Shown here: positions 12,295 to 57,375 of the stretch, piece after piece
How positions within the stretch are numbered: the stretch's first letter is position 1
How the letters are laid out: the number at the start of each line of letters is the position of its first letter
NCBI RefSeq assembly: GCF_003790525.1
Contig: NZ_CP033635.1
Length of the DNA stretch: 64,000 bases
Source: Escherichia coli
GTDB taxonomy: Bacteria; Pseudomonadota; Gammaproteobacteria; Enterobacterales; Enterobacteriaceae
Direction: 5' to 3' (one strand)
Translations under genes and position numbers: made by a program
The notes under the pieces: model-generated
Databases searched by the model: none
What the model saw: the letters and a program-made list of their open reading frames with translations, nothing else
Told to the model about the DNA's origin: nothing

Positions 12295-12336
12295 TAAACC
12301 TGTGGCGATTCAGTCTATTAAACCTGTGGCGATTCA
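12295..12336 (+). repeat. tandem direct repeat (2 x 18 bp TAAACCTGTGGCGATTCA, 24-bp period) upstream of hsdM
   Basis: Read directly from sequence at 12295-12312 and 12319-12336; possible operator/regulatory site. Confidence 0.6.
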
Positions 12337-12497
12337 CTTTATGGTGTCATAAACTTAAATCTAGCGCCGGGTAGAACAAGTTAATCGAACGATGTAGCGG
12401 CCATTTAGGCGTTACAGAAAGAACAGAATTTTAAATTTATAGTGAAGCCGTTGCAGCAACTTTGTGGGGTGCAACCAACACTGAACAGGAAAAGAAA

Positions 12498-14921
12498 ATG
12501 GATCATAGTGTACATAACAAGCTCATCTCATTTATTTGGAACATTGCCGACGACTGTTTACGTGATGTGTACGTTCGCGGTAAGTACCGCGATGTGATTT
12601 TACCTATGGTGGTATTACGACGTTTAGATACGTTACTTGAACCCACCAAAGAAGCCGTGCTTGAAGAGGTCAAGTTCCAAAAAGAAGAGATGCAAGCCAC
12701 GGAGCTTGATGATGAACCATTGAAGGCGGCTAGTGGTTATGTTTTTTACAATACATCTAAATGGACCCTGAAATCCCTGTTCAACACCGCAACGAATAAC
12801 CAACAGATATTACTCGCCAACTTTGAAGAGTACCTGCTTGGCTTTAGCGATAATGTTAAAGAAATCATTGAATGCTTTAACCTCAAGTCGCAAATTCGTC
12901 ACATGGCCTCAAAGCAAGTCCTTCTTGATGTCGTCGAAAAGTTTGTTTCCCCTTACATCAACTTAACTCATGAAACGATCGAAGACCCAGATGGCAACAA
13001 GATGCCAGCCCTTACTAACCTGGGTATGGGGTACGTGTTCGAAGAGTTGATCCGTAAGTTCAACGAGGAGAATAACGAAGAAGCCGGTGAGCACTTTACA
13101 CCTAGGGAAGTGATTGAGCTGATGACACACTTGGTTTTTGACCCAGTGAAAGAGCAGCTACCATTGACCATGACCGTTTACGACCCTGCGTGTGGTAGCG
13201 GTGGTATGCTCACTGAATCTCAAAACTTCATTGAAGAGAAATACCCGAACGACAGCCGAGATATTTACCTTTACGGCAAAGAGATCAATGACGAGACCTA
13301 CGCGATTTGTAAATCGGACATGATGATCAAAGGTAACAACCCTGAGAACATCAAGGTAGGCTCAACCTTGTCTACCGACGAGTTTGCGGCTTCTCGCTTT
13401 GACTTTATGTTGTCTAACCCGCCATACGGTAAGAGTTGGGCGTCTGAACAGAAGCATATTAAAGACGGTAGTGACGTGATTGACCCACGTTTTAAGGTTA
13501 GCCTGAAAGACTATTGGGGAAATCTCGAAGTGGTGGATGCCACGCCACGTTCAAGTGATGGCCAGCTGCTCTTTTTAATGGAAATGGTCAACAAGATGAA
13601 AGATCCGAGCGTAAGCCCATTAGGCAGCCGGATTGCTTCTGTTCATAACGGCTCATCGCTCTTTACCGGTGATGCGGGCGGTGGCGAAAGTAACATTCGT
13701 CGCTTCATCATTGAAAACGACATGCTAGATGCCATCGTTCAGTTACCAAATAACCTGTTCTACAACACCGGCATTACCACTTACATTTGGGTGTTGAACA
13801 ACAATAAACCTGAGGCACGTAAAGGTAAGGTGCAACTGATTGATGCCAGCTTGCTATACCGTAAGTTGCGTAAGAACTTAGGTAACAAAAACTGCGAATT
13901 TGCGCCTGAGCACATCACGGAAATCACCGATACTTACCTCGCGTGTGTGGACGTTGAAAGAGCACTTGATGCAAACAATGATCCTATCGGTATCGCCAGT
14001 AAGGTCTTTAGTAATGACGACTTTGGCTACTACAAAGTCACTATCGAGCGCCCAGATCGCCGCAAAGCCAAGTTTACTCAAGATGCCATAGCCCCACTGC
14101 GTTTTGATAAGCAACTTAGTGAAGTGATGGAGTACGTGTACGCAGAGCACGGCGAACGTGTTTACGAAAAAACTGGCTACGGGTCAGATCAGAAAAAGAG
14201 CTTCTTAAAATCCATCGAGAAAGACATTCTTTCTTGGTGTGAAGATAACGACATCAGTCTCAATGCTAAGGCTAAGGCCAAACTGCTTGATGTGAAACAC
14301 TGGCTGGCGCTAAAAGCATTGCTTGAAACTGCACAAACGCTGATGGCTGACATCGGTAGCATTGAATTTGATGACTTCAATAGCTTTAAAACCCAAGTTG
14401 ATAAATCGCTAAAAGCCCATGCTATTAAGCTTTCAGCACCTGAGAAAAATGCCATTCTTCACGCGGTGAGCTGGTATGACGAAACCGCCAAGAAAGTGGT
14501 TAAAAAGGTAGTTAAATTAACGGGTGATAAATTAAACGACCTGCTGGAGCGCTATGAGTGTGAAGTCGCTGACTTGCCAGATTTTGGTTATTACCCCGTT
14601 CCTTCAGCAGAAGGCGGTAAAAAAGGCGAGTATATCACTTACGAGACCAATTCAGACCTGCGAGATACAGAATCTGTTCCATTAAAGCAAAGCATTTACC
14701 AGTACTTCCTAGATGAAGTGAAGCCTCATGTCGATGAAGCATGGATAAACCTAGATACGGTAAAAATTGGCTATGAAATCAGCTTCAATAAGTATTTCTA
14801 CCGTCATAAACCGCTGCGTAGTTTAGAAGAGGTCGCAACCGACATCATCAACCTAGAACAAAAAGCCGAAGGTTTGATTGCGCAGATTCTTGGTGCGGAA
14901 GTAAAAAAGGTTCAGGGGTAA
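12498..14921 (+). CDS. hsdM: Type I restriction-modification system, methyltransferase subunit HsdM (long form with C-terminal extension)
   Basis: N6-adenine MTase motifs DPACGSGGML (motif I) and NPPYG (motif IV); ATG 12498 with RBS AGGAAAAG preferred over TTG 12462. Confidence 0.85.
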   Translation: MDHSVHNKLISFIWNIADDCLRDVYVRGKYRDVILPMVVLRRLDTLLEPTKEAVLEEVKFQKEEMQATELDDEPLKAASGYVFYNTSKWTLKSLFNTATNNQQILLANFEEYLLGFSDNVKEIIECFNLKSQIRHMASKQVLLDVVEKFVSPYINLTHETIEDPDGNKMPALTNLGMGYVFEELIRKFNEENNEEAGEHFTPREVIELMTHLVFDPVKEQLPLTMTVYDPACGSGGMLTESQNFIEEKYPNDSRDIYLYGKEINDETYAICKSDMMIKGNNPENIKVGSTLSTDEFAASRFDFMLSNPPYGKSWASEQKHIKDGSDVIDPRFKVSLKDYWGNLEVVDATPRSSDGQLLFLMEMVNKMKDPSVSPLGSRIASVHNGSSLFTGDAGGGESNIRRFIIENDMLDAIVQLPNNLFYNTGITTYIWVLNNNKPEARKGKVQLIDASLLYRKLRKNLGNKNCEFAPEHITEITDTYLACVDVERALDANNDPIGIASKVFSNDDFGYYKVTIERPDRRKAKFTQDAIAPLRFDKQLSEVMEYVYAEHGERVYEKTGYGSDQKKSFLKSIEKDILSWCEDNDISLNAKAKAKLLDVKHWLALKALLETAQTLMADIGSIEFDDFNSFKTQVDKSLKAHAIKLSAPEKNAILHAVSWYDETAKKVVKKVVKLTGDKLNDLLERYECEVADLPDFGYYPVPSAEGGKKGEYITYETNSDLRDTESVPLKQSIYQYFLDEVKPHVDEAWINLDTVKIGYEISFNKYFYRHKPLRSLEEVATDIINLEQKAEGLIAQILGAEVKKVQG

Positions 14922-14927
14922 GTCGTT

Positions 14928-16238
14928 ATGATGAAGATTTCTGAAATGCCGAAATATGACGATTATGTAGATTCTGGGGTTGAATGGTTGGGACGAGTAC
15001 CTGCTTCTTGGGAATTAACACGATTAGGCACTCGCTTTAATGAGCGTAGATCTAAAGTTTCAGACATTGACTACCCCGCACTCTCCGTAACAAAAAAAGG
15101 CGTTCTACCTCAATTAGATAATGCGGCCAAAACAAAAGATGGCGATAACAGAAAGCTAGTAAAAGAGGGTGACTTTGTTATAAATAGCCGCTCTGATCGG
15201 AAAGGTTCTAGTGGAGTATCTGACAGAGATGGATCAGTATCGCTTATAAATATAGTGCTTAAACCAAAAGGGATTCATCCAAAGTTTTCTGAGCATCTTT
15301 TGAAAAGTCATGCATTTATTGAGGAATACTATCGTGTTGGACGTGGAATTGTCGCAGATTTGTGGACTACTCGATACGATGAAATGCGGACGATTACTAT
15401 ATCTGTTCCTTCACTAGAAGAGCAAACCCGTATCGCCAACTTCCTAGACAAGAAAACCGCTCTAATCGACGAAGCGATTTCGATCAAAGAAAAGCAAATT
15501 AATCTGTTAAAAGAACATAAGCAGATCATCATCCAACAGGCGGTGACCCAAGGGCTTGATCCCAATGTGCCAATGAAAGACTCCGGTGTGGATTGGATTG
15601 GAGATATTCCAGAGCATTGGGAAGTTGTGCCTCTAAAAAGGTTGGCGGTCTTGAGCCCTTCTGTGAAAGTTTCAAATAGAAAGTCCAAAGAATTAGTTAC
15701 TTTCTTAGCGATGGAAAAGGTTTCAACAGATGGATTTATTGATCAAGATACATTAATGCCTATATGTGATGTGAGCCAAGGTTTTACGGTTTTTAACCGG
15801 GGGGATGTGATTGTTGCAAAAATTACACCTTGCTTTGAAAATGGGAAATCTGCTTGGCTTAACAATCTTCAAACTGAGTTTGGATACGGCTCAACCGAGT
15901 TTCACGTTTTAAGATGTGGTCAGAGAATTATAGGAAGTTTTCTCTACTTAATCGTTAGTTCGCCCCTTTTTCTTAATGCCGGTGAGGCTATGATGACTGG
16001 TTCAGCTGGTCAGAAGCGCGTGCCTAGTTCATTTATCCAAAACTTTCCTACCGCAATTCCCGGAGTTGCAGAGCAAGAAAAAATAGTATCAAAGGTAAAA
16101 GAGCTGTTTTCACAGATTGATGTTGTTGTGGCTTCTACGGTAAATCAAATCGAAAAGCTCAAAGAATACAAAACCACCCTGATCAACAGCGCCGTGACAG
16201 GAAAAATAAAAATCACCCCAGAAATGGTTGAGCAATAG
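14928..16238 (+). CDS. hsdS: Type I restriction-modification system, specificity subunit HsdS
   Basis: 436 aa, two-TRD architecture with conserved central and C-terminal helical regions; 6-bp gap after hsdM. Confidence 0.8.
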   Translation: MMKISEMPKYDDYVDSGVEWLGRVPASWELTRLGTRFNERRSKVSDIDYPALSVTKKGVLPQLDNAAKTKDGDNRKLVKEGDFVINSRSDRKGSSGVSDRDGSVSLINIVLKPKGIHPKFSEHLLKSHAFIEEYYRVGRGIVADLWTTRYDEMRTITISVPSLEEQTRIANFLDKKTALIDEAISIKEKQINLLKEHKQIIIQQAVTQGLDPNVPMKDSGVDWIGDIPEHWEVVPLKRLAVLSPSVKVSNRKSKELVTFLAMEKVSTDGFIDQDTLMPICDVSQGFTVFNRGDVIVAKITPCFENGKSAWLNNLQTEFGYGSTEFHVLRCGQRIIGSFLYLIVSSPLFLNAGEAMMTGSAGQKRVPSSFIQNFPTAIPGVAEQEKIVSKVKELFSQIDVVVASTVNQIEKLKEYKTTLINSAVTGKIKITPEMVEQ

Positions 16239-16247
16239 GAAGCGAAT

Positions 16248-17411
16248 ATGTTCACGGTAAATTATCAGACCAACAGGATTAGTCCGGTTAAGACGAAGAG
16301 ATTCAGTGAGTTGGGCTTTACTGAGCGCAAAAATCTTCAGGAATGGTTGGCACACGAGCCTTCCGCACTGGGTGAAGAGCTGCTGATTATTCAAAAAGAG
16401 TTCGATGGCTTTGATGACACCCGTGAACGCTTAGATTTACTGGCACTGGATAAAGATGGCAACTTGGTCATTATTGAAAACAAGCTGGACGATAGTGGCC
16501 GCGATGTGGTGTGGCAGGCGCTTAAATATGCCTCCTACTGCGCAAGTTTAACCAAAGCGCAAATCGTTGAAATTTACCAGCAGTACTTAGACCGCTATGA
16601 GCCTGTAACAGGAGAGGTTGACTTGTTTAATACCCCTGCAAGTGCCTCTGCTAGAATATGTGAGTTTTTGGATGCGCCCGATCTCGATGAGTTAAAGCTC
16701 AACCTGGGTAACAGCCAGCGCATTATGTTAGTTGCGGCAAACTTTCGCAAAGAAGTGACCAGCACCGCGCTGTGGTTATTGGGTCAAGGCATTAGCATTG
16801 CCTGCTTCAAAATCACGCCTTATTCACTGGGTGAACAGCTACTGATTAATATTGACCAGATCATTCCAACGCCAGAAGCGAAAGAGTTGATGATCGGCAT
16901 TAATGCCAAGGAAGCGGAAGAAAAAACCACCGAAGTGGTACTAAAAAACCGCCATACCGTGCGTCGCGAGTACTGGGAGCGTGCCTTAGAGGCGTTTCAG
17001 AAAAGCTCTTGCCAACTCTATAACAACATTAGCCCAAGCAAAGATCATTGGTTATCAGCAGGCTCAGGGCTAAGTGGATGTCCGTATAACCTGATATTTC
17101 TGCAAAAAGAGCTTCGAGTAGAGCTTTGGATCAGCCGTGGGGTTACCGAAGAGAATAAATACCTTTTTGATTTGTTGAGTCAGTCCAAACAAGACATTGA
17201 GCATACTTTTGGTGCAGAACTTGAGTGGATGAGGCTGGATGAGAAGAAATCTTGCCGTATCCAGTTTTCGACCAAAGCTGACGGGTTTAACAAAGAGACT
17301 TGGCCCCAAGCGGTTGCGTGGCACTTAGAGCAGATGACAAAGTTAGAAAAAGCCTTAAAAGGACCGCTGCAAAAAGCGGCTGAGGCAATGAAACAGAAGA
17401 ATTTTGATTAA
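16248..17411 (+). CDS. uncharacterised protein embedded in the Type I R-M operon; N-terminal RecB-like PD-(D/E)xK nuclease signature, C-terminal region of unknown function
   Basis: 387 aa; motifs D63, E77-x-K79 (VIIENK), Q90-x3-Y94; no Walker A; RBS AGGAAG; 9 nt after hsdS stop, 14 nt before hsdR start. Confidence 0.55.
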   Translation: MFTVNYQTNRISPVKTKRFSELGFTERKNLQEWLAHEPSALGEELLIIQKEFDGFDDTRERLDLLALDKDGNLVIIENKLDDSGRDVVWQALKYASYCASLTKAQIVEIYQQYLDRYEPVTGEVDLFNTPASASARICEFLDAPDLDELKLNLGNSQRIMLVAANFRKEVTSTALWLLGQGISIACFKITPYSLGEQLLINIDQIIPTPEAKELMIGINAKEAEEKTTEVVLKNRHTVRREYWERALEAFQKSSCQLYNNISPSKDHWLSAGSGLSGCPYNLIFLQKELRVELWISRGVTEENKYLFDLLSQSKQDIEHTFGAELEWMRLDEKKSCRIQFSTKADGFNKETWPQAVAWHLEQMTKLEKALKGPLQKAAEAMKQKNFD

Positions 17412-17425
17412 GGGAATTTACAATT

Positions 17426-20400
17426 ATGGTCAGTCAAACCAATGAACAAGCATTAGAGTCGGCCATTGAGAAATGTCTGGCTGGGATCAGTACTGAAGAG
17501 CTTAAAGAGGGACTGAGTCAGCAGTCACTGGGTGCTGGATACTTCATTGGTGCTGCTAGTGACTTTAATATGCAATATGCCATTGATGAACGTTTTTTCT
17601 GGCAATTTCTGCAAAAGACACAAGAAGTAGAGTTGGCCAAACTGCAAAAGAACAACCCCTCAGATTGGCAACGTAAGTTACTCGAACGATTTGACCGACT
17701 GATTAAGAAGCATGGCATTCTTCATTTACTTAAGAAAGGGCTAAGCGTAGACGATGCTCATTTCAATTTGCTCTATCCAGCCCCTTTGGCAAGTAGTAGT
17801 GAGAAGGTAAAGCAAAACTTTGCAGATAACGTGTTTAGTTGTACTCGCCAAGTGCGCTATTCCATGGTAAATCCCCTACAAGAAATCGACATGGTATTGT
17901 TTATCAACGGAATACCCTTGATAACGCTGGAGTTGAAGAACGCATGGACCGGGCAAACAGCACGTTATCACGGCCAAAAGCAGTATCGAGATGATCGGGA
18001 TGCAACTCAGCCATTGCTGACCTTTGGCCGCTGCCTAGTGCATATGGCGGTCGATACCGACGAAGTGTATATGACCACCAAGTTATCAGGTAGCAGTACA
18101 TTCTTCTTGCCGTTCAATAAAGGTCACAATCTTGGACAAGGCAACCCGCCGAATCCATCTGGCCATAAAACGGCATACCTATGGCAAGAAGTATTCACTA
18201 AAGACAGCTTGGCGAATATTATTCAGCATTTTGTGCGTCTGGATGGGTCAAGCAAAGATCCATTACCAAAGCGAACCCTGTTCTTTCCTCGATACCATCA
18301 ATTGGATGTGGTGAGAAAATTAGTAGACCATGCCGCCCAGCACGGTGTCGGTCAGACTTACTTAATTCAACACTCAGCCGGTTCAGGTAAGTCTAACTCG
18401 ATTACCTGGGCAGCTTATCAGCTAATTGAAACCTATCCTGCTTCGTCTGATGTGGCAGGCGGAAAAAGCTTGGAGCAGCCGTTGTTTGACTCTGTGATTG
18501 TGGTCACCGATAGACGCCTATTGGACAAGCAGCTGCGGGATAACATTAAAGAGTTTTCTGAAGTAAAGAACATTATTGCCCCAGCGAATAAGTCTTCTGA
18601 GCTTAAGCAGGCGCTGGAGAATGGCAAAAAGATTATTATAACGACGATTCAGAAATTCCCGTTCATTATTGATGGTATCGCCGATCTTAGTGACAAGCGC
18701 TTTGCAGTGATCATCGATGAAGCACACAGCTCACAGTCTGGTTCGGCGCATGACAATATGAACCGAGCGATGGGCAAGTCTGAAGTCGAAGAGGCAGAAG
18801 ATGCTCAGGATAAAATCCTTCAGGCGATGAGATCGCGTAAGATGCGCGGGAATGCGTCGTACCTGGCATTTACAGCGACACCAAAAAACAGCACTTTGGA
18901 GAAATTTGGTCAACGCCAAGAAGATGGCTCTTACAAGCCGTTTCACTTGTATTCGATGAAACAAGCCATTGAAGAAGGCTTCATCTTGGATGTGCTGGCA
19001 AATTATACGACGTACAAAAGTTATTATGAGATTGAGAAATCAATTGCTGATAACCCTGAGTTTGATACCAAAAAGGCGCAGAAAAAACTCAGAGCTTATG
19101 TAGAACGAAGCCAGCAAACAATTGATATCAAGGCAGAGATTATGCTGGAGCATTTTGTTCCGCATGTCGTGAATACGAAAAAGCTCAAAGGTAAAGGTAA
19201 AGGAATGGTGGTCACTCAAAATATTGAGGCGGCCATTCGATACTACAAAGCGATAAGGCGAATACTTGAGGAGCAAGGAAACCCGTTTAAAGTTGCCATT
19301 GCTTTCTCAGGAACCAAAGAAGTTGATGGTATTGAATATACCGAAGCAGATATTAATGGTTTTGCCGAGTCAGATACCAAAGATATGTTTGATACCGATG
19401 AGTATCGACTTTTAGTGGTTGCTAACAAGTATCTGACTGGGTTTGACCAGCCTAAGCTTTGCGCCATGTATGTAGATAAGAAGCTCGCCAGTGTCTTGTG
19501 TGTTCAGGCGCTATCTAGGCTCAATCGCAGTGCACCTAAGCTAGGGAAGAAAACAGAAGACTTGTTTATCCTGGATTTTTTCAACTCGGTTGAAGATATT
19601 CAATCAGCATTCGATCCTTTCTATACAGCAACGTCATTGTCCCAAGCTACAGATATAAACGTACTGCACGAGTTGAAAGATGAAATGGACGATGTCGGTG
19701 TGTACGAGTGGTATGAAGTTGAAGACTTTGTGACGCGTTATTTCAAGAATGAAGACGCCCAAACACTCAGTCCAATCATTGATATTGCCGCAGCGCGGTT
19801 TGACCATGAACTAGATCTTGAAGCTGAAGCTAAAGTGGACTTTAAGATTAAAGCCAAACAGTTCGTTAAAATCTATGGGCAGATGGCTTCTATCATGCCT
19901 TATGAAATGGTCAGCTGGGAAAAACTGTTTTGGTTCCTGAAGTTTTTAATACCGAAATTGAAAGTGGAAGATCCCGATGCTGATGCTATTGATGAGCTTC
20001 TCGATTCTGTCGATCTGAGTTCATACGGTTTGCAACGTGTGAAGCTTAACCACAGCATTAAACTTAGTGACCAAGAAGCGGAGCTTGATCCTCAAAATCC
20101 GAACCCACGTGGGGTGCATGGCGGTGAAAAAGAAACTGACCCGCTGGATGAAATCATTCGCACATTTAATGAGCGATGGTTCCAGGGCTGGAGTGCCACA
20201 CCTGAAGAGCAAAAGGTTAAGTTCGTGAACATCGCTGAAAGTATCCGCAATCACCCTGACTTCGAATCGAAATACAAAAACAACCCAGATCCCCATAATC
20301 GAGATTTGGCCTTCGAAAAAATGCTCAAGGAAATCATGCTGCAACGCCGTAAAGATGAACTTGAGCTCTACAAGTTGTTCGCAGGAGATTCAGCATTTAA

Positions 20401-20443
20401 AGCCTCGTGGACGCAAAGTATGCAACGAATGGTAGGTAGGTAG
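17426..20443 (+). CDS. hsdR: Type I restriction enzyme, endonuclease/translocase subunit HsdR
   Basis: 1005 aa; N-terminal PD-(D/E)xK (DMVLFINGIPLITLELK), SF2 helicase motifs GSGKS and DEAH. Confidence 0.85.
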   Translation: MVSQTNEQALESAIEKCLAGISTEELKEGLSQQSLGAGYFIGAASDFNMQYAIDERFFWQFLQKTQEVELAKLQKNNPSDWQRKLLERFDRLIKKHGILHLLKKGLSVDDAHFNLLYPAPLASSSEKVKQNFADNVFSCTRQVRYSMVNPLQEIDMVLFINGIPLITLELKNAWTGQTARYHGQKQYRDDRDATQPLLTFGRCLVHMAVDTDEVYMTTKLSGSSTFFLPFNKGHNLGQGNPPNPSGHKTAYLWQEVFTKDSLANIIQHFVRLDGSSKDPLPKRTLFFPRYHQLDVVRKLVDHAAQHGVGQTYLIQHSAGSGKSNSITWAAYQLIETYPASSDVAGGKSLEQPLFDSVIVVTDRRLLDKQLRDNIKEFSEVKNIIAPANKSSELKQALENGKKIIITTIQKFPFIIDGIADLSDKRFAVIIDEAHSSQSGSAHDNMNRAMGKSEVEEAEDAQDKILQAMRSRKMRGNASYLAFTATPKNSTLEKFGQRQEDGSYKPFHLYSMKQAIEEGFILDVLANYTTYKSYYEIEKSIADNPEFDTKKAQKKLRAYVERSQQTIDIKAEIMLEHFVPHVVNTKKLKGKGKGMVVTQNIEAAIRYYKAIRRILEEQGNPFKVAIAFSGTKEVDGIEYTEADINGFAESDTKDMFDTDEYRLLVVANKYLTGFDQPKLCAMYVDKKLASVLCVQALSRLNRSAPKLGKKTEDLFILDFFNSVEDIQSAFDPFYTATSLSQATDINVLHELKDEMDDVGVYEWYEVEDFVTRYFKNEDAQTLSPIIDIAAARFDHELDLEAEAKVDFKIKAKQFVKIYGQMASIMPYEMVSWEKLFWFLKFLIPKLKVEDPDADAIDELLDSVDLSSYGLQRVKLNHSIKLSDQEAELDPQNPNPRGVHGGEKETDPLDEIIRTFNERWFQGWSATPEEQKVKFVNIAESIRNHPDFESKYKNNPDPHNRDLAFEKMLKEIMLQRRKDELELYKLFAGDSAFKASWTQSMQRMVGR

Positions 20444-20590: not shown

Positions 20591-20933
20591 AGTGGCACAC
20601 TGAATTTGGCCACCTGAACAGAGGTGATATGCTCACCTCAGAACAACACAGGTGCTCCAATGAAAAAAAGAAATTTCAGCGCAGAGTTTAAACGCGAATC
20701 CGCTCAACTGGTTGTTGACCAGAACTACACGGTGGCAGATGTCGCCAAAGCTATGGATGTTGGCCTTTCCACAATGACAAGATGGGTCAAACAACTGCGT
20801 GATGAGCGTCAGGGCAAAACACCAAAAGCCTCTCCGATAACACCAGAACAAATCGAAATACGTGAGCTGAGGAAAAAGCTACAACGCATTGAAATGGAGA
20901 ATGAAATATTAAAAAAGGCTACTGTAGATTCAA
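20588..20933 (+). mobile_element. IS911-like element, 5' part (left IR and orfA), truncated by IS30
   Basis: Terminus TGAAGTGGCACACTGAATTTGGCCACC; Orf[52 protein letters not shown]... from ATG 20660, diverges after ...ILKKAT. Confidence 0.75.
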
Positions 20934-21685
20934 TCTGTCAATGCAACACCCCTTTCAATTATCTCTTTCGGTGTTTTGAACTTCAGTGTCTTTCTCGGTC
21001 TGTTGTTTAGCTGAGCAGCAACCAGATCTAGTTCATGTTGAGTATATTGGGCAAGACATGTCTTTTTAGGAAAGTACTGCCGAATTAGCCCATTTGTGTT
21101 CTCATTTGTTCCCCGCTGCCAAGGACTCTGAGGATCGCAGAAGTAAACTTTAACGCCGGTGCTGACAGTAAATTCTAGATGTCTGGCCAGTTCCATTCCT
21201 CTGTCCCATGTCAGTGATTTTCTGAGTTCTGACGGTAAACTCAGGAATTTGTCGGTAAGAGCCTGATTTACTGAGACAGAATCTTTGCCCCTGAGTCTAA
21301 GGATGATCGTATAACGTGATTTTCGGTCTACAAGTGTGGCTATATGAGAGTTTTTTGTACCTGAGACTAAATCGCCCTCCCAATGCCCCAGAGAGCGTCT
21401 GTTATCGATATTTCGGGAACGTTCGTGAATTGGTGTTCCGTTCACTATGTTAATCGTACCTCTTTCGCCTTTGCGGGTATGACGCCTGCCATGGCGAAGG
21501 CTATGCGACCGTCGCAGATGCTGTATATTCAGGTGGTGTAGCGCTTCACGGCTACGAAAGTACAGCGTTTTATAAATTGTCTCAGGTGATATTCGCAGCG
21601 TTTTTTGACGTGGTTTTGTTCGCCTTAACCATCCTGATATTTGCTCTGGAGACCATTTCATCTCCAGCTTTTCCAGAACAAGGTA
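20926..21685 (-). mobile_element. IS30 fragment (3' about 60 percent, including right end), inserted into IS911 orfA
   Basis: Minus-strand product matches IS30 transposase from ...LVLEKLEMKWSPEQISGWL... to C-terminus; N-terminal HTH region absent. Confidence 0.8.
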
Positions 21686-22250
21686 AGCGTAAACCGACCG
21701 CCGTATGTAGCCATTAGACAAGAATTGGTAACTTAGACGCCCATCTGACACAGACGGACATCTAAGTATGGAATTACAGGACTGGCGAAAAGAACCTCTA
21801 AAAAGTATTCGAATGAATTCAAACTTCGTATGATTGACTGGCATCACAACCCGGTGCTTGTGTGGCCCAGATTGCTCGAGAAAATGGCGTCAATGATAAT
21901 GTTATTTTCAAATGGCTCAGACTTTGGCAAAACGAAGGGCGTATATCGCGGCGTCTTCCGGTAACAACCTCTTCTGACACTGGCGTTGAATTATTACCTG
22001 TGGAGATAACGCCGGATGAGCCGCAAGAACCGGTGGCTGCTCTTACTCCGTCTTTATCCACCCAGACTACTGTCAGTGCCAGCTCCTGCAAGGTGGAGTT
22101 CCGTCACGGTAACATGACGCTGGAAAATCCTTCACCAGATCTGCTCACAGTGTTGCTCCGTGAACTGAGCGGGAGGGGACAATGATCTCACTCCCGTCAG
22201 GTACCCGCATCTGGCTGGGTGCCGGCATTACCGATATGCGTAAATCCTTC
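21686..22250 (+). mobile_element. IS66-family remnant (frameshifted orfA, truncated orfB start)
   Basis: ...AQIARENGVNDNVIFKWLRLWQNEGR... and MISLPSGTRIWLGAGITDMRKSFNG then premature stop; boundaries approximate. Confidence 0.6.
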
Positions 22251-23984: not shown

Positions 23985-24030
23985 AAAACGATCAATAAGA
24001 CAGGTGTCGATCGTTGCCATCGATCGTTTG
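23985..24030 (+). promoter_or_regulatory. antigen 43 phase-variation switch: three clustered Dam GATC sites (OxyR operator region)
   Basis: GATC at 23990, 24009 and 24022, about 220 bp upstream of the flu start codon. Confidence 0.55.
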
Positions 24031-24242
24031 TAGTGGTTAATGGTCTGCGAAAAGGCAGCTGAATCTCTTCATCATGCATAACGGAATTGCACACAACGGA
24101 CTGATACTTCTCTGGCGGATGAGAGAGGGAAAGCATTTATGTCCGGGAAAAACCACTTTATCTGACCATGCTGTTTTGTACCTGCCGGTATCCACTTTTG
24201 TGGGTACCGGCTTTTTTATTCACCCTCTGTAAGGAAAAGCTG

Positions 24243-32240: not shown

Positions 32241-32316
32241 TGGTGGCCCCTGTTGGGTTTGAACCAACGACCAAGCGATTATGAGTCGCCTGCTCTAACC
32301 ACTGAGCTAAGGGGCC
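32241..32316 (-). tRNA. ileX: tRNA-Ile (anticodon CAU, lysidine-type), island integration site
   Basis: Reverse complement GGCCCCTTAGCTCAGTGGTTAGAGCAGGCGACTCATAATCGC...GGGGCCACCA; adjacent to mug as in E. coli. Confidence 0.85.
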
Positions 32317-53095: not shown

Positions 53096-53174
53096 CCGGA
53101 AAGCGCTTCACAGTTCTCGCGTTGTGCCGGATAGACCTATTGACGCTGTTGTTTTTTCAACCTAAAGTAAAGGA

Positions 53175-53320
53175 ACAAGGGTAAGGGAGGATTTCTCCCC
53201 CCTCTGATGAGTTGTTAGTAAGTCGGGAAACTTAACAGTAACAACACAACCAGTATGATGACGAACTTCATCATAACCCTTTCCTTCTATAAGGCCCCTT
53301 CCTCGGGAGGGGCTTTCCCG
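53175..53320 (+). ncRNA. sibD: Sib-family antisense RNA (antitoxin), copy 1
   Basis: Sigma70-like promoter TTGACG-17bp-TAAAGT at 53140-53168; fully antisense to ibs ORF; hairpin plus U-rich tract about 53293-53322; ends approximate. Confidence 0.5.
53215..53274 (-). CDS. ibsD: Ibs-family 19-aa hydrophobic type I toxin, copy 1
   Basis: Manual minus-strand translation MMKFVIILVVLLLLSFPTY; below ORF-track cut-off. Confidence 0.75.
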   Translation of the reverse strand: MMKFVIILVVLLLLSFPTY

Positions 53321-53550
53321 TTTCAGCCCCTTGCTGACTCCCCGATTGTTGATGAGCGCCAGACCCCGCGCAATGCTTTCTCTTATGCAGTTTTCTCTTC
53401 CCCGAGTCGGCTCGCAAAACGCTGTAACAACCTGATCATTTGTACTTTTTAGCAGAACGCAGATATAAAAAATCCCCGGCTTTTTGGGCCAGGGATATGT
53501 GTTAATGAAACCTTCTTGACGCTGTTGTTTTTTCAACCTAAAGTAAAGGA

Positions 53551-53696
53551 ACAAGGGTGAGGGAGGATTTCTCCCCCCTCTGATTGGCTGTTAATAAGTG
53601 GCGAAACTTACAAGTAACAACACAATCAGTATGATGACGAGCTTCATCATAACCCTTTCCTTCTGTAAGGCCCCTTCCTCGGGAGGGGCTTTCCCG
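53551..53696 (+). ncRNA. sibE: Sib-family antisense RNA (antitoxin), copy 2
   Basis: Same promoter (TTGACG 53516-53521, TAAAGT 53539-53544) and terminator architecture as copy 1; ends approximate. Confidence 0.5.
53591..53650 (-). CDS. ibsE: Ibs-family 19-aa hydrophobic type I toxin, copy 2
   Basis: Manual minus-strand translation MMKLVIILIVLLLVSFATY. Confidence 0.75.
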   Translation of the reverse strand: MMKLVIILIVLLLVSFATY

Positions 53697-57124: not shown

Positions 57125-57375
57125 GAATCCGCTTATTCTCAGGGCGGGGCGAAATTCCCCACCGGCGGTAAATCAACTCAGTTGAAAGCCCGCGAGCGCT
57201 TTGGGTGCGAACTCAAAGGACAGCAGATCCGGTGTAATTCCGGGGCCGACGGTTAGAGTCCGGATGGGAGAGAGTAACGATTCTGTCGGGCATGGACCCG
57301 CTCACGTTATTTTGGCTATATGCCGCCACTCCTAAGACTGCCCTGATTCTGGTAACCATAATTTTAGTAAGGTTT
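57125..57375 (+). ncRNA. FMN riboswitch (RFN element) in ribB leader
   Basis: Conserved aptamer core AGGGCGGGGCGAAATTCCCCACCGGCGGTAAATCAACTCAGTTGAAAGCCCGCGAGCGC...CCGGGGCCGACGGTTAGAGTCCGGATGGGAGAG upstream of ribB. Confidence 0.75.

Follow-up and report, generated by a model that had tools for sequence, protein, structure and literature searches.

A putative MdgA-type nuclease gene between hsdS and hsdR of an Escherichia coli Type I restriction-modification operon

An additional gene within a Type I operon

The window analyzed here is a stretch of 64,000 nucleotides from an Escherichia coli contig (NZ_CP033635.1, assembly GCF_003790525.1), and it carries a Type I restriction-modification (R-M) operon in which a gene for a protein of 387 amino acids lies between hsdS and hsdR. 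The operon and its associated elements are as follows.

12294-12336, + strand: direct repeats, two exact 19-nt copies of TTAAACCTGTGGCGATTCA with a period of 24, about 160-200 nt upstream of hsdM
12498-14921, + strand: hsdM, encoding the Type I methyltransferase subunit (807 aa when counted from the RefSeq start codon; NPPY motif; PADLOC MTase_I, E = 3e-268)
14928-16238, + strand: hsdS, specificity subunit (436 aa; stop codon TAG at 16236-16238)
16237-16242, + strand: ribosome-binding site AGGAAG, which shares bases with the hsdS stop codon and lies 5 nt before the ATG of the 387-aa ORF
16248-17411, + strand: MdgA-like / PDC-S11 gene (387 aa; ATG start, stop codon TAA at 17409-17411), predicted to encode a NucS-like nuclease domain and a DUF4268 domain
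17426-20443, + strand: hsdR, Type I restriction subunit (1005 aa; its own PD-(D/E)xK motif and a DEAH helicase motif)

These coordinates bear out the initial annotation of a 387-aa ORF with its own ribosome-binding site, separated from the hsdS stop codon by 9 nt and from the hsdR ATG (17426), which AAGGGA precedes, by 14 nt. A consensus scan for promoter-like and terminator-like sites on the + strand found none at either the hsdS-ORF or the ORF-hsdR junction, and its few + strand matches all fall within hsdM and hsdR. Given these tight gaps and uninterrupted junctions, the gene is probably co-transcribed with the R-M genes, as had been proposed. GC content is uniform at 41-47% over all four operon genes versus about 53-55% in the upstream flank, and the hsdM reading frame is open further 5′, from a TTG at 12462. 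HsdM, HsdS, and HsdR appear intact as judged by NCBIfam and PADLOC matches. Because HsdR has nuclease and DEAH motifs of its own, the 387-aa gene is no substitute for a missing subunit.

The direct repeats upstream of hsdM, for which 0 matches are expected by chance, sit in a leader that is common to this chromosomal module and to the copy on a phage-plasmid, where one unit is present. The sequence shared by chromosome and plasmid starts at about 12267, just past an IS3 remnant. The repeats may represent an operator, a promoter, or another regulatory element of the operon.

Mobile elements flank the module on both sides. Directly upstream, at 8771-12239, is an IS3-family element that carries an ALIL frameshift pseudoknot (9052-9168) and is split by a group II intron, with a reverse-transcriptase ORF at 10333-11691 and an Rfam Intron_gpII match at 11695-11781. 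Fragments of IS3, IS30, and IS66 elements lie downstream at 20624-22185. The operon sequence is 100% identical to that of the E. coli LR-72 chromosome, in which RefSeq names the 387-aa product 'DUF4268 domain-containing protein'. The ISEc22 (IS66-family) insertion of strain LR-72 is absent from the window at that point, and thus beyond the operon the window has a different arrangement that resembles GZEC065. Other Rfam features in the window are an IS102 RNA (23988-24224), a tRNA on the - strand (32244-32316), two Sib antitoxin RNAs (53140-53665), and an FMN riboswitch (57131-57279).

A nuclease domain, DUF4268, and a proposed relationship to MdgA

The 387-aa protein is composed of two domains, and the coordinates of its parts in the window are the following.

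16248-16865, + strand: N-terminal nuclease domain of the PD-(D/E)xK (NucS-like) type, aa 1-206; a helical insert occupies about aa 100-155
16434-16529, + strand: catalytic motif D63 ... E77-N-K79 ... Q90-x3-Y94, assigned by alignment to NucS, by conservation, and by its counterpart in the E77A mutation of MdgA
16959-17363, + strand: C-terminal DUF4268 domain, aa 238-372 (Pfam)

The five motif residues are located exactly where the initial annotation had placed them. In an alignment of 87 relatives (30-60% identity), E26, D63, K79, and Y94 are invariant, and E51, E77, and Q90 are conserved in at least 90% of the sequences. A profile built from this alignment matches NucS of P. abyssi, such that D63, E77, K79, Q90, and Y94 align with NucS D160, E174, K176, Q187, and Y191 at identical spacing. 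The D...(D/E)-x-K residues lie on an alpha-beta-beta-beta-alpha-beta core accompanied by the QxxxY helix motif, which places the domain in the NucS-like branch of the PD-(D/E)xK nucleases and supports the fold that had been suggested from the motif. Weak Pfam matches to NucS_C and PDDEXK_4 cover aa 29-97, whereas Pfam DUF4268 (PF14088) is matched at aa 238-372 over model positions 1-138 of 140 (E = 2e-39).

The AlphaFold model is confident (pLDDT 94.6), and a long helix joins the nuclease domain to DUF4268. The latter adopts an alpha+beta fold like that of T3SS chaperones and YbjN and has no catalytic motif; no known modified-base reader is found among the top 60 matches listed. Therefore, the earlier view that the remaining ~290 aa lack a recognizable catalytic motif holds for DUF4268, but this region is not featureless, since the nuclease domain runs to about residue 206 and DUF4268 occupies residues 238-372. 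We propose that DUF4268 probably helps to select the substrate or to assemble the enzyme, and it can be regarded as a candidate for a new modified-DNA reader or assembly domain. The Walker A pattern [AG]xxxxGK[ST] is absent from the protein, and neither PrrC nor RloC families are among its PADLOC or NCBIfam matches, in agreement with the earlier statement that it belongs to neither. Searching PDB sequences with this one protein as query gave no match, and a PHROGs search gave matches only to families of unknown function.

RefSeq, Pfam, and PADLOC all place the gene in a catalogued family, DUF4268 / PDC-S11. The PADLOC model PDC-S11 PDLC04913 is matched over aa 1-383 (model positions 1-373 of 375, E = 4.5e-182), and seven further PDC-S11 models are matched as well. 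PDC-S11 is a bioinformatic candidate label that is not known to have a mechanism attached. Neither PDC-S11 nor DUF4268 is mentioned in the supplements of Payne et al. 2024. The family does have a tested member, so the description of the gene as uncharacterised can be set aside; the accompanying reservation that it might belong to a catalogued DUF family was correct.

That tested member is MdgA (modification defense gene A), which was recovered by functional metagenomic selections (Cell Host Microbe 2025, PMC12366544; bioRxiv 10.1101/2025.02.28.640651). Its source is an insert of human faecal metagenomic DNA, attributed to the genus Comamonas, where it lies beside a short-chain dehydrogenase gene, and it is a single ORF encoding an N-terminal NucS-like nuclease and DUF4268 whose homologues are spread over many phyla (PMC12366544). 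As a single gene, MdgA protects cells from T4 and Mu but gives no protection from T4-GT7, the purified protein degrades T4 DNA (glucosyl-hmC) far better than unmodified T4-GT7 DNA, and the E77A mutation abolishes activity (PMC12366544).

In the E. coli protein, too, one polypeptide contains a NucS-like nuclease and, C-terminal to it, DUF4268, and Glu77 stands in the sequence context of MdgA. The mutagenic primer for E77A, GTTATTGTTGCAAACAAGCTAGATGAT, encodes V-I-V-A-N-K-L-D-D (PMC12366544), so that the wild-type MdgA sequence is VIV-E77-NKLDD; the corresponding stretch of the E. coli protein, aa 74-82, is VII-E77-NKLDD. Across the 87-member alignment the family signature is V[IV][IV]ENK[LR]DD, and this Glu is at the protein's own residue 77 in 57 of the 87 members. 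The proposed homology of MdgA to the E. coli protein rests on domain architecture, a nine-residue motif, and residue numbering. The exact 27-mer from the primer had no match in metagenome contigs. Metagenome matches to a 21-mer pattern derived from it were confined to one further member of the family (L086) and two genes unrelated to it, and the top 150 cluster representatives did not include MdgA. Unlike MdgA, which comes from an insert outside any hsd operon, the E. coli gene is part of one.

The family is large, with thousands of homologues (a library-wide search gave 5540 cluster representatives with E no higher than 0.001), and its domain arrangements vary. Three members (P0172, P0205, and P0229) consist only of 3-5 tandem DUF4268 repeats and the nuclease is absent, P0244 contains the complete two-domain unit twice in tandem, and seven (P0183, P0188, P0203, P0215, P0226, P0232, and P0239) join the same nuclease domain to unrelated C-terminal domains.

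Genomic settings and distribution of the family

The neighborhoods of 80 homologous loci (52-87% identity), taken from GTDB species representatives by a search with a 22-sequence alignment, were classified by labelling Type I genes on called ORFs with HMMs iterated from the HsdM, HsdS, and HsdR of the window. Since these HMMs stem from one Type I family, the counts of association with Type I genes are lower bounds.

Between Type I genes, same strand: at least 31 of 80 loci
Type I genes on one side only: at least 15 of 80 loci
Type I genes elsewhere in the locus: 4 of 80 loci
No Type I genes detected: 30 of 80 loci, 13 of them with short flanks

The homologue therefore has Type I genes on one or both sides at 46 or more of the 80 loci, an enrichment that could reflect more than a shared hotspot, and it has no adjacent Type I genes at 34. 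Obligate linkage to hsd genes, as expected of R-M-coupled guard systems such as PrrC and Ronin, does not describe a family with 31 embedded, 15 adjacent, and 34 non-adjacent members. The exact order hsdS-X-hsdR occurs in nine loci. In many loci the hsdS-hsdR gap also holds Fic/Doc, PtuAB (Septu), or DarTG genes (NCBIfam) and, as judged by eye, a pair of DUF262 proteins or an AlbA_2-like protein. This gap has been described as a recombination hotspot for defense cassettes, DarTG2 in EPEC being one instance. Because unrelated cassettes fill it, a position there implies no functional coupling.

Other settings recur. In three loci the gene is 3′ of BREX pglX-pglZ-brxL (BrxL, E = 1.5e-182), and one homologue follows a Type IIG enzyme. 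Copies with 74-81% identity are located next to gyrA and hisS; the two at 74% have gyrA on one side and an MFS transporter/hisS on the other, with neighbors judged by eye from the translations, and some homologues (L014, L015) lie among housekeeping genes. In Marinomonas foliarum (L004:11161-14546) and Celerinatantimonas (L010), the homologue and a DUF262-type pair share the hsdS-hsdR gap, and such Type I operons would each hold two putative modification-dependent systems, the pair being GmrSD/TgvAB-like by eye.

Of 5426 complete E. coli genomes, 58 (about 1%) have the gene and 59 have hsdR. The gene is found on chromosomes and plasmids, including phage-plasmids of ~96-114 kb that encode capsid, portal, terminase, and tail proteins. 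In L084 and L090 (NZ_CP022167.1, pM160133_p3), the hsdM-hsdS-X-hsdR module lies on E. coli plasmids in this size range that are typed 'non-mobilizable'; genes for major capsid, portal, terminase, and tail mark at least one of them as a phage-plasmid, and so a temperate phage-plasmid carries both Type I R-M and the nuclease gene. Copies that are >97% identical in Vibrio, Proteus, Providencia, Morganella, Alteromonas, and Marinomonas indicate that the module is horizontally mobile.

Whereas hsdR is at least 99% identical nearly everywhere, the 387-aa gene has a second allele class at 95.8%. Compared with GZEC065, hsdM is identical, both target-recognition domains of hsdS are replaced (14928-16238 versus L088:3178-4491), the 387-aa gene differs by 49 nucleotides and 12 amino acids (dN/dS of 0.08), and the 7 differences in hsdR all fall within its first 1 kb. 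The allele divergence of ~4% is a recombination tract that spans hsdS to the 5′ end of hsdR. This tract and the dN/dS of 0.08 led us to reject diversifying selection on the gene. A more distant copy, in E. coli WP4-S18-ESBL-08 (L089:6001-7182; 91% amino acid identity), is under strong purifying selection (dN/dS of 0.05), has no adjoining hsd genes, and lies directly upstream of mobH/traD in an ICE of the SXT/R391 type. Two large hypothetical genes precede this copy, and one of them has a weak DdmD-like match; this ICE site may be another defense hotspot. With thousands of homologues and purifying selection relative to two diverged E. coli alleles, the gene is real.

Possible functions of the 387-aa protein

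A role in defense, as had been supposed, is probable. Within that role, our preferred explanation, to which we assign a probability of roughly 0.6, is that the gene encodes an autonomous, Type IV-like restriction nuclease of the MdgA type that is co-expressed from the hsdS-hsdR hotspot. Its N-terminal NucS-like domain would cleave DNA by means of D63, E77, and K79, and the DUF4268 domain would probably aid in substrate choice or enzyme assembly. By analogy with MdgA, the nuclease would act alone on hypermodified phage DNA, such as that bearing the glucosyl-hydroxymethylcytosine of T-even phages or the Mom modification of Mu, and would spare ordinary host DNA, including that with Dam/Dcm and Type I methylation. 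The two activities of the operon could then be complementary, with the Type I enzyme cutting unmodified foreign DNA and the nuclease cutting DNA whose modification shields it from Type I restriction. Co-transcription with hsdM, hsdS, and hsdR would follow from the location of the gene in a known cassette hotspot. Autonomy is supported by the 34 of 80 loci without adjacent Type I genes, by the BREX copies, and by the ICE copy. Some caution is warranted because substrate specificity can differ between members of such families, and relatives pair the same nuclease domain with other C-terminal domains.

The initial annotation had instead favored an effector modeled on the prr locus that would cause abortive infection or counter anti-restriction. 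In such a model, the HsdMS/HsdR complex would keep the nuclease latent and free it once a phage anti-restriction protein (Ocr, ArdA, or Stp-like) has disabled the Type I enzyme. The tight packing and probable co-transcription of the gene between hsdS and hsdR, the embedding of 31 of 80 homologues among Type I genes and the adjacency of 15 more, the precedents of PrrC and Ronin, and a C-terminal fold that is used elsewhere for protein binding would all suit such an arrangement. Nevertheless, close homologues (74-91% amino acid identity) persist without hsd genes and under purifying selection, and the family is found after BREX and beside Type IIG systems, whereas PrrC has been reported almost exclusively as embedded in Type I R-M loci. 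The protein also has no ATPase domain and no PrrC match in PADLOC. E. coli DH10B lacks mrr-hsdRMS-mcrBC. The phage assays of MdgA were all performed in MegaX, a DH10B derivative, and MdgA thus needs no Type I partner; the purified protein also cuts modified DNA in vitro without partners (PMC12366544). Given the hsd-free homologues and the autonomy of MdgA, we consider a latent effector of this kind very unlikely. It seems similarly improbable that DUF4268 docks the nuclease onto the Type I complex in the embedded copies through physical or regulatory coupling, which could take the form of recruitment when HsdR stalls at hypermodified DNA or of release upon anti-restriction of HsdMS. If such docking were to occur, the operon would encode a composite Type I/Type IV machine rather than two independent enzymes.

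It is possible, though doubtful, that the protein is an autonomous antiphage PD-(D/E)xK nuclease triggered by something other than base hypermodification, such as free DNA ends (the case of Shedu), intermediates of replication, or a phage protein to which DUF4268 binds. The fold of DUF4268 gives no hint of modification reading and relatives carry other C-terminal domains, as such a trigger would allow. Yet the architecture and motif are those of MdgA, whose dependence on modification was demonstrated in vivo and in vitro (PMC12366544), and DUF4268 also accompanies GmrSD-type Type IV enzymes and MdgB. A role outside of defense, either in NucS/EndoMS-like repair or as a maintenance or exclusion factor of an island, ICE, or phage-plasmid, could draw on the weak NCBIfam NucS match, on the travel of the module on ICE-like elements and phage-plasmids, and on some homologues among housekeeping genes. 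We regard it as extremely unlikely, given the strong enrichment beside R-M, BREX, and other defense genes and the sporadic presence in 58 of 5426 E. coli genomes, which is unlike the pattern of a repair gene. Identity as a true NucS/EndoMS was rejected because the protein scores 23.7 bits with the NCBIfam NucS model, for which the cut-off is 216, only the catalytic core (aa 25-101) aligns, to the C-terminal half of the model, and Pfam NucS_N is not matched.

Comparisons with known systems help to place the putative MdgA-type nuclease. Relative to NucS/EndoMS (PDB 2vld, 5gke), its nuclease domain is N-terminal, the N-terminal DNA-binding domain of NucS is missing, DUF4268 is present instead, and the family context is defense rather than repair. 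With PrrC, RloC, and Ronin it shares a position inside a Type I R-M gene cluster. It differs from PrrC and RloC in having no ABC-ATPase, Walker A motif, or anticodon-nuclease domain, for which reason these identities were rejected, and it is not a small membrane toxin like Ronin, which was rejected because RonA is a 61-aa membrane peptide. Furthermore, unlike PrrC and Ronin, its family is not confined to R-M loci and includes, in MdgA, a characterized relative that needs no R-M partner. MspJI and AspBHI carry SRA-like accessory domains where the E. coli protein carries DUF4268 with its T3SS-chaperone/YbjN-like fold, and Shedu (SduA) has variable N-terminal domains rather than a C-terminal DUF4268. 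A direct precedent for the organization is TgvAB on VPI-2 of Vibrio cholerae, a Type IV system of the GmrSD-like kind whose genes lie inside a Type I R-M cluster (PMC11411939). In both cases a modification-dependent function would be nested among Type I genes to provide cover against modified and unmodified DNA, but TgvAB comprises two DUF262/DUF1524-type proteins of the His-Me/GmrSD kind that are unrelated in sequence and fold.

The DUF4268/PDC-S11 family, the activity of MdgA, and the Type IV-in-Type I arrangement are already known, and thus this is not a new kind of system. Rather, the E. coli gene appears to be a new member of the MdgA family, and the proposed relationship would tie the DUF4268/PDC-S11 annotation to a characterized modification-dependent nuclease. 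This link would explain the presence of the gene inside a Type I operon as a way of layering protection against phage DNA, whether unmodified or hypermodified, and it may be relevant for predicting the phage host range of carrier strains, for example with regard to T-even therapeutic phages.
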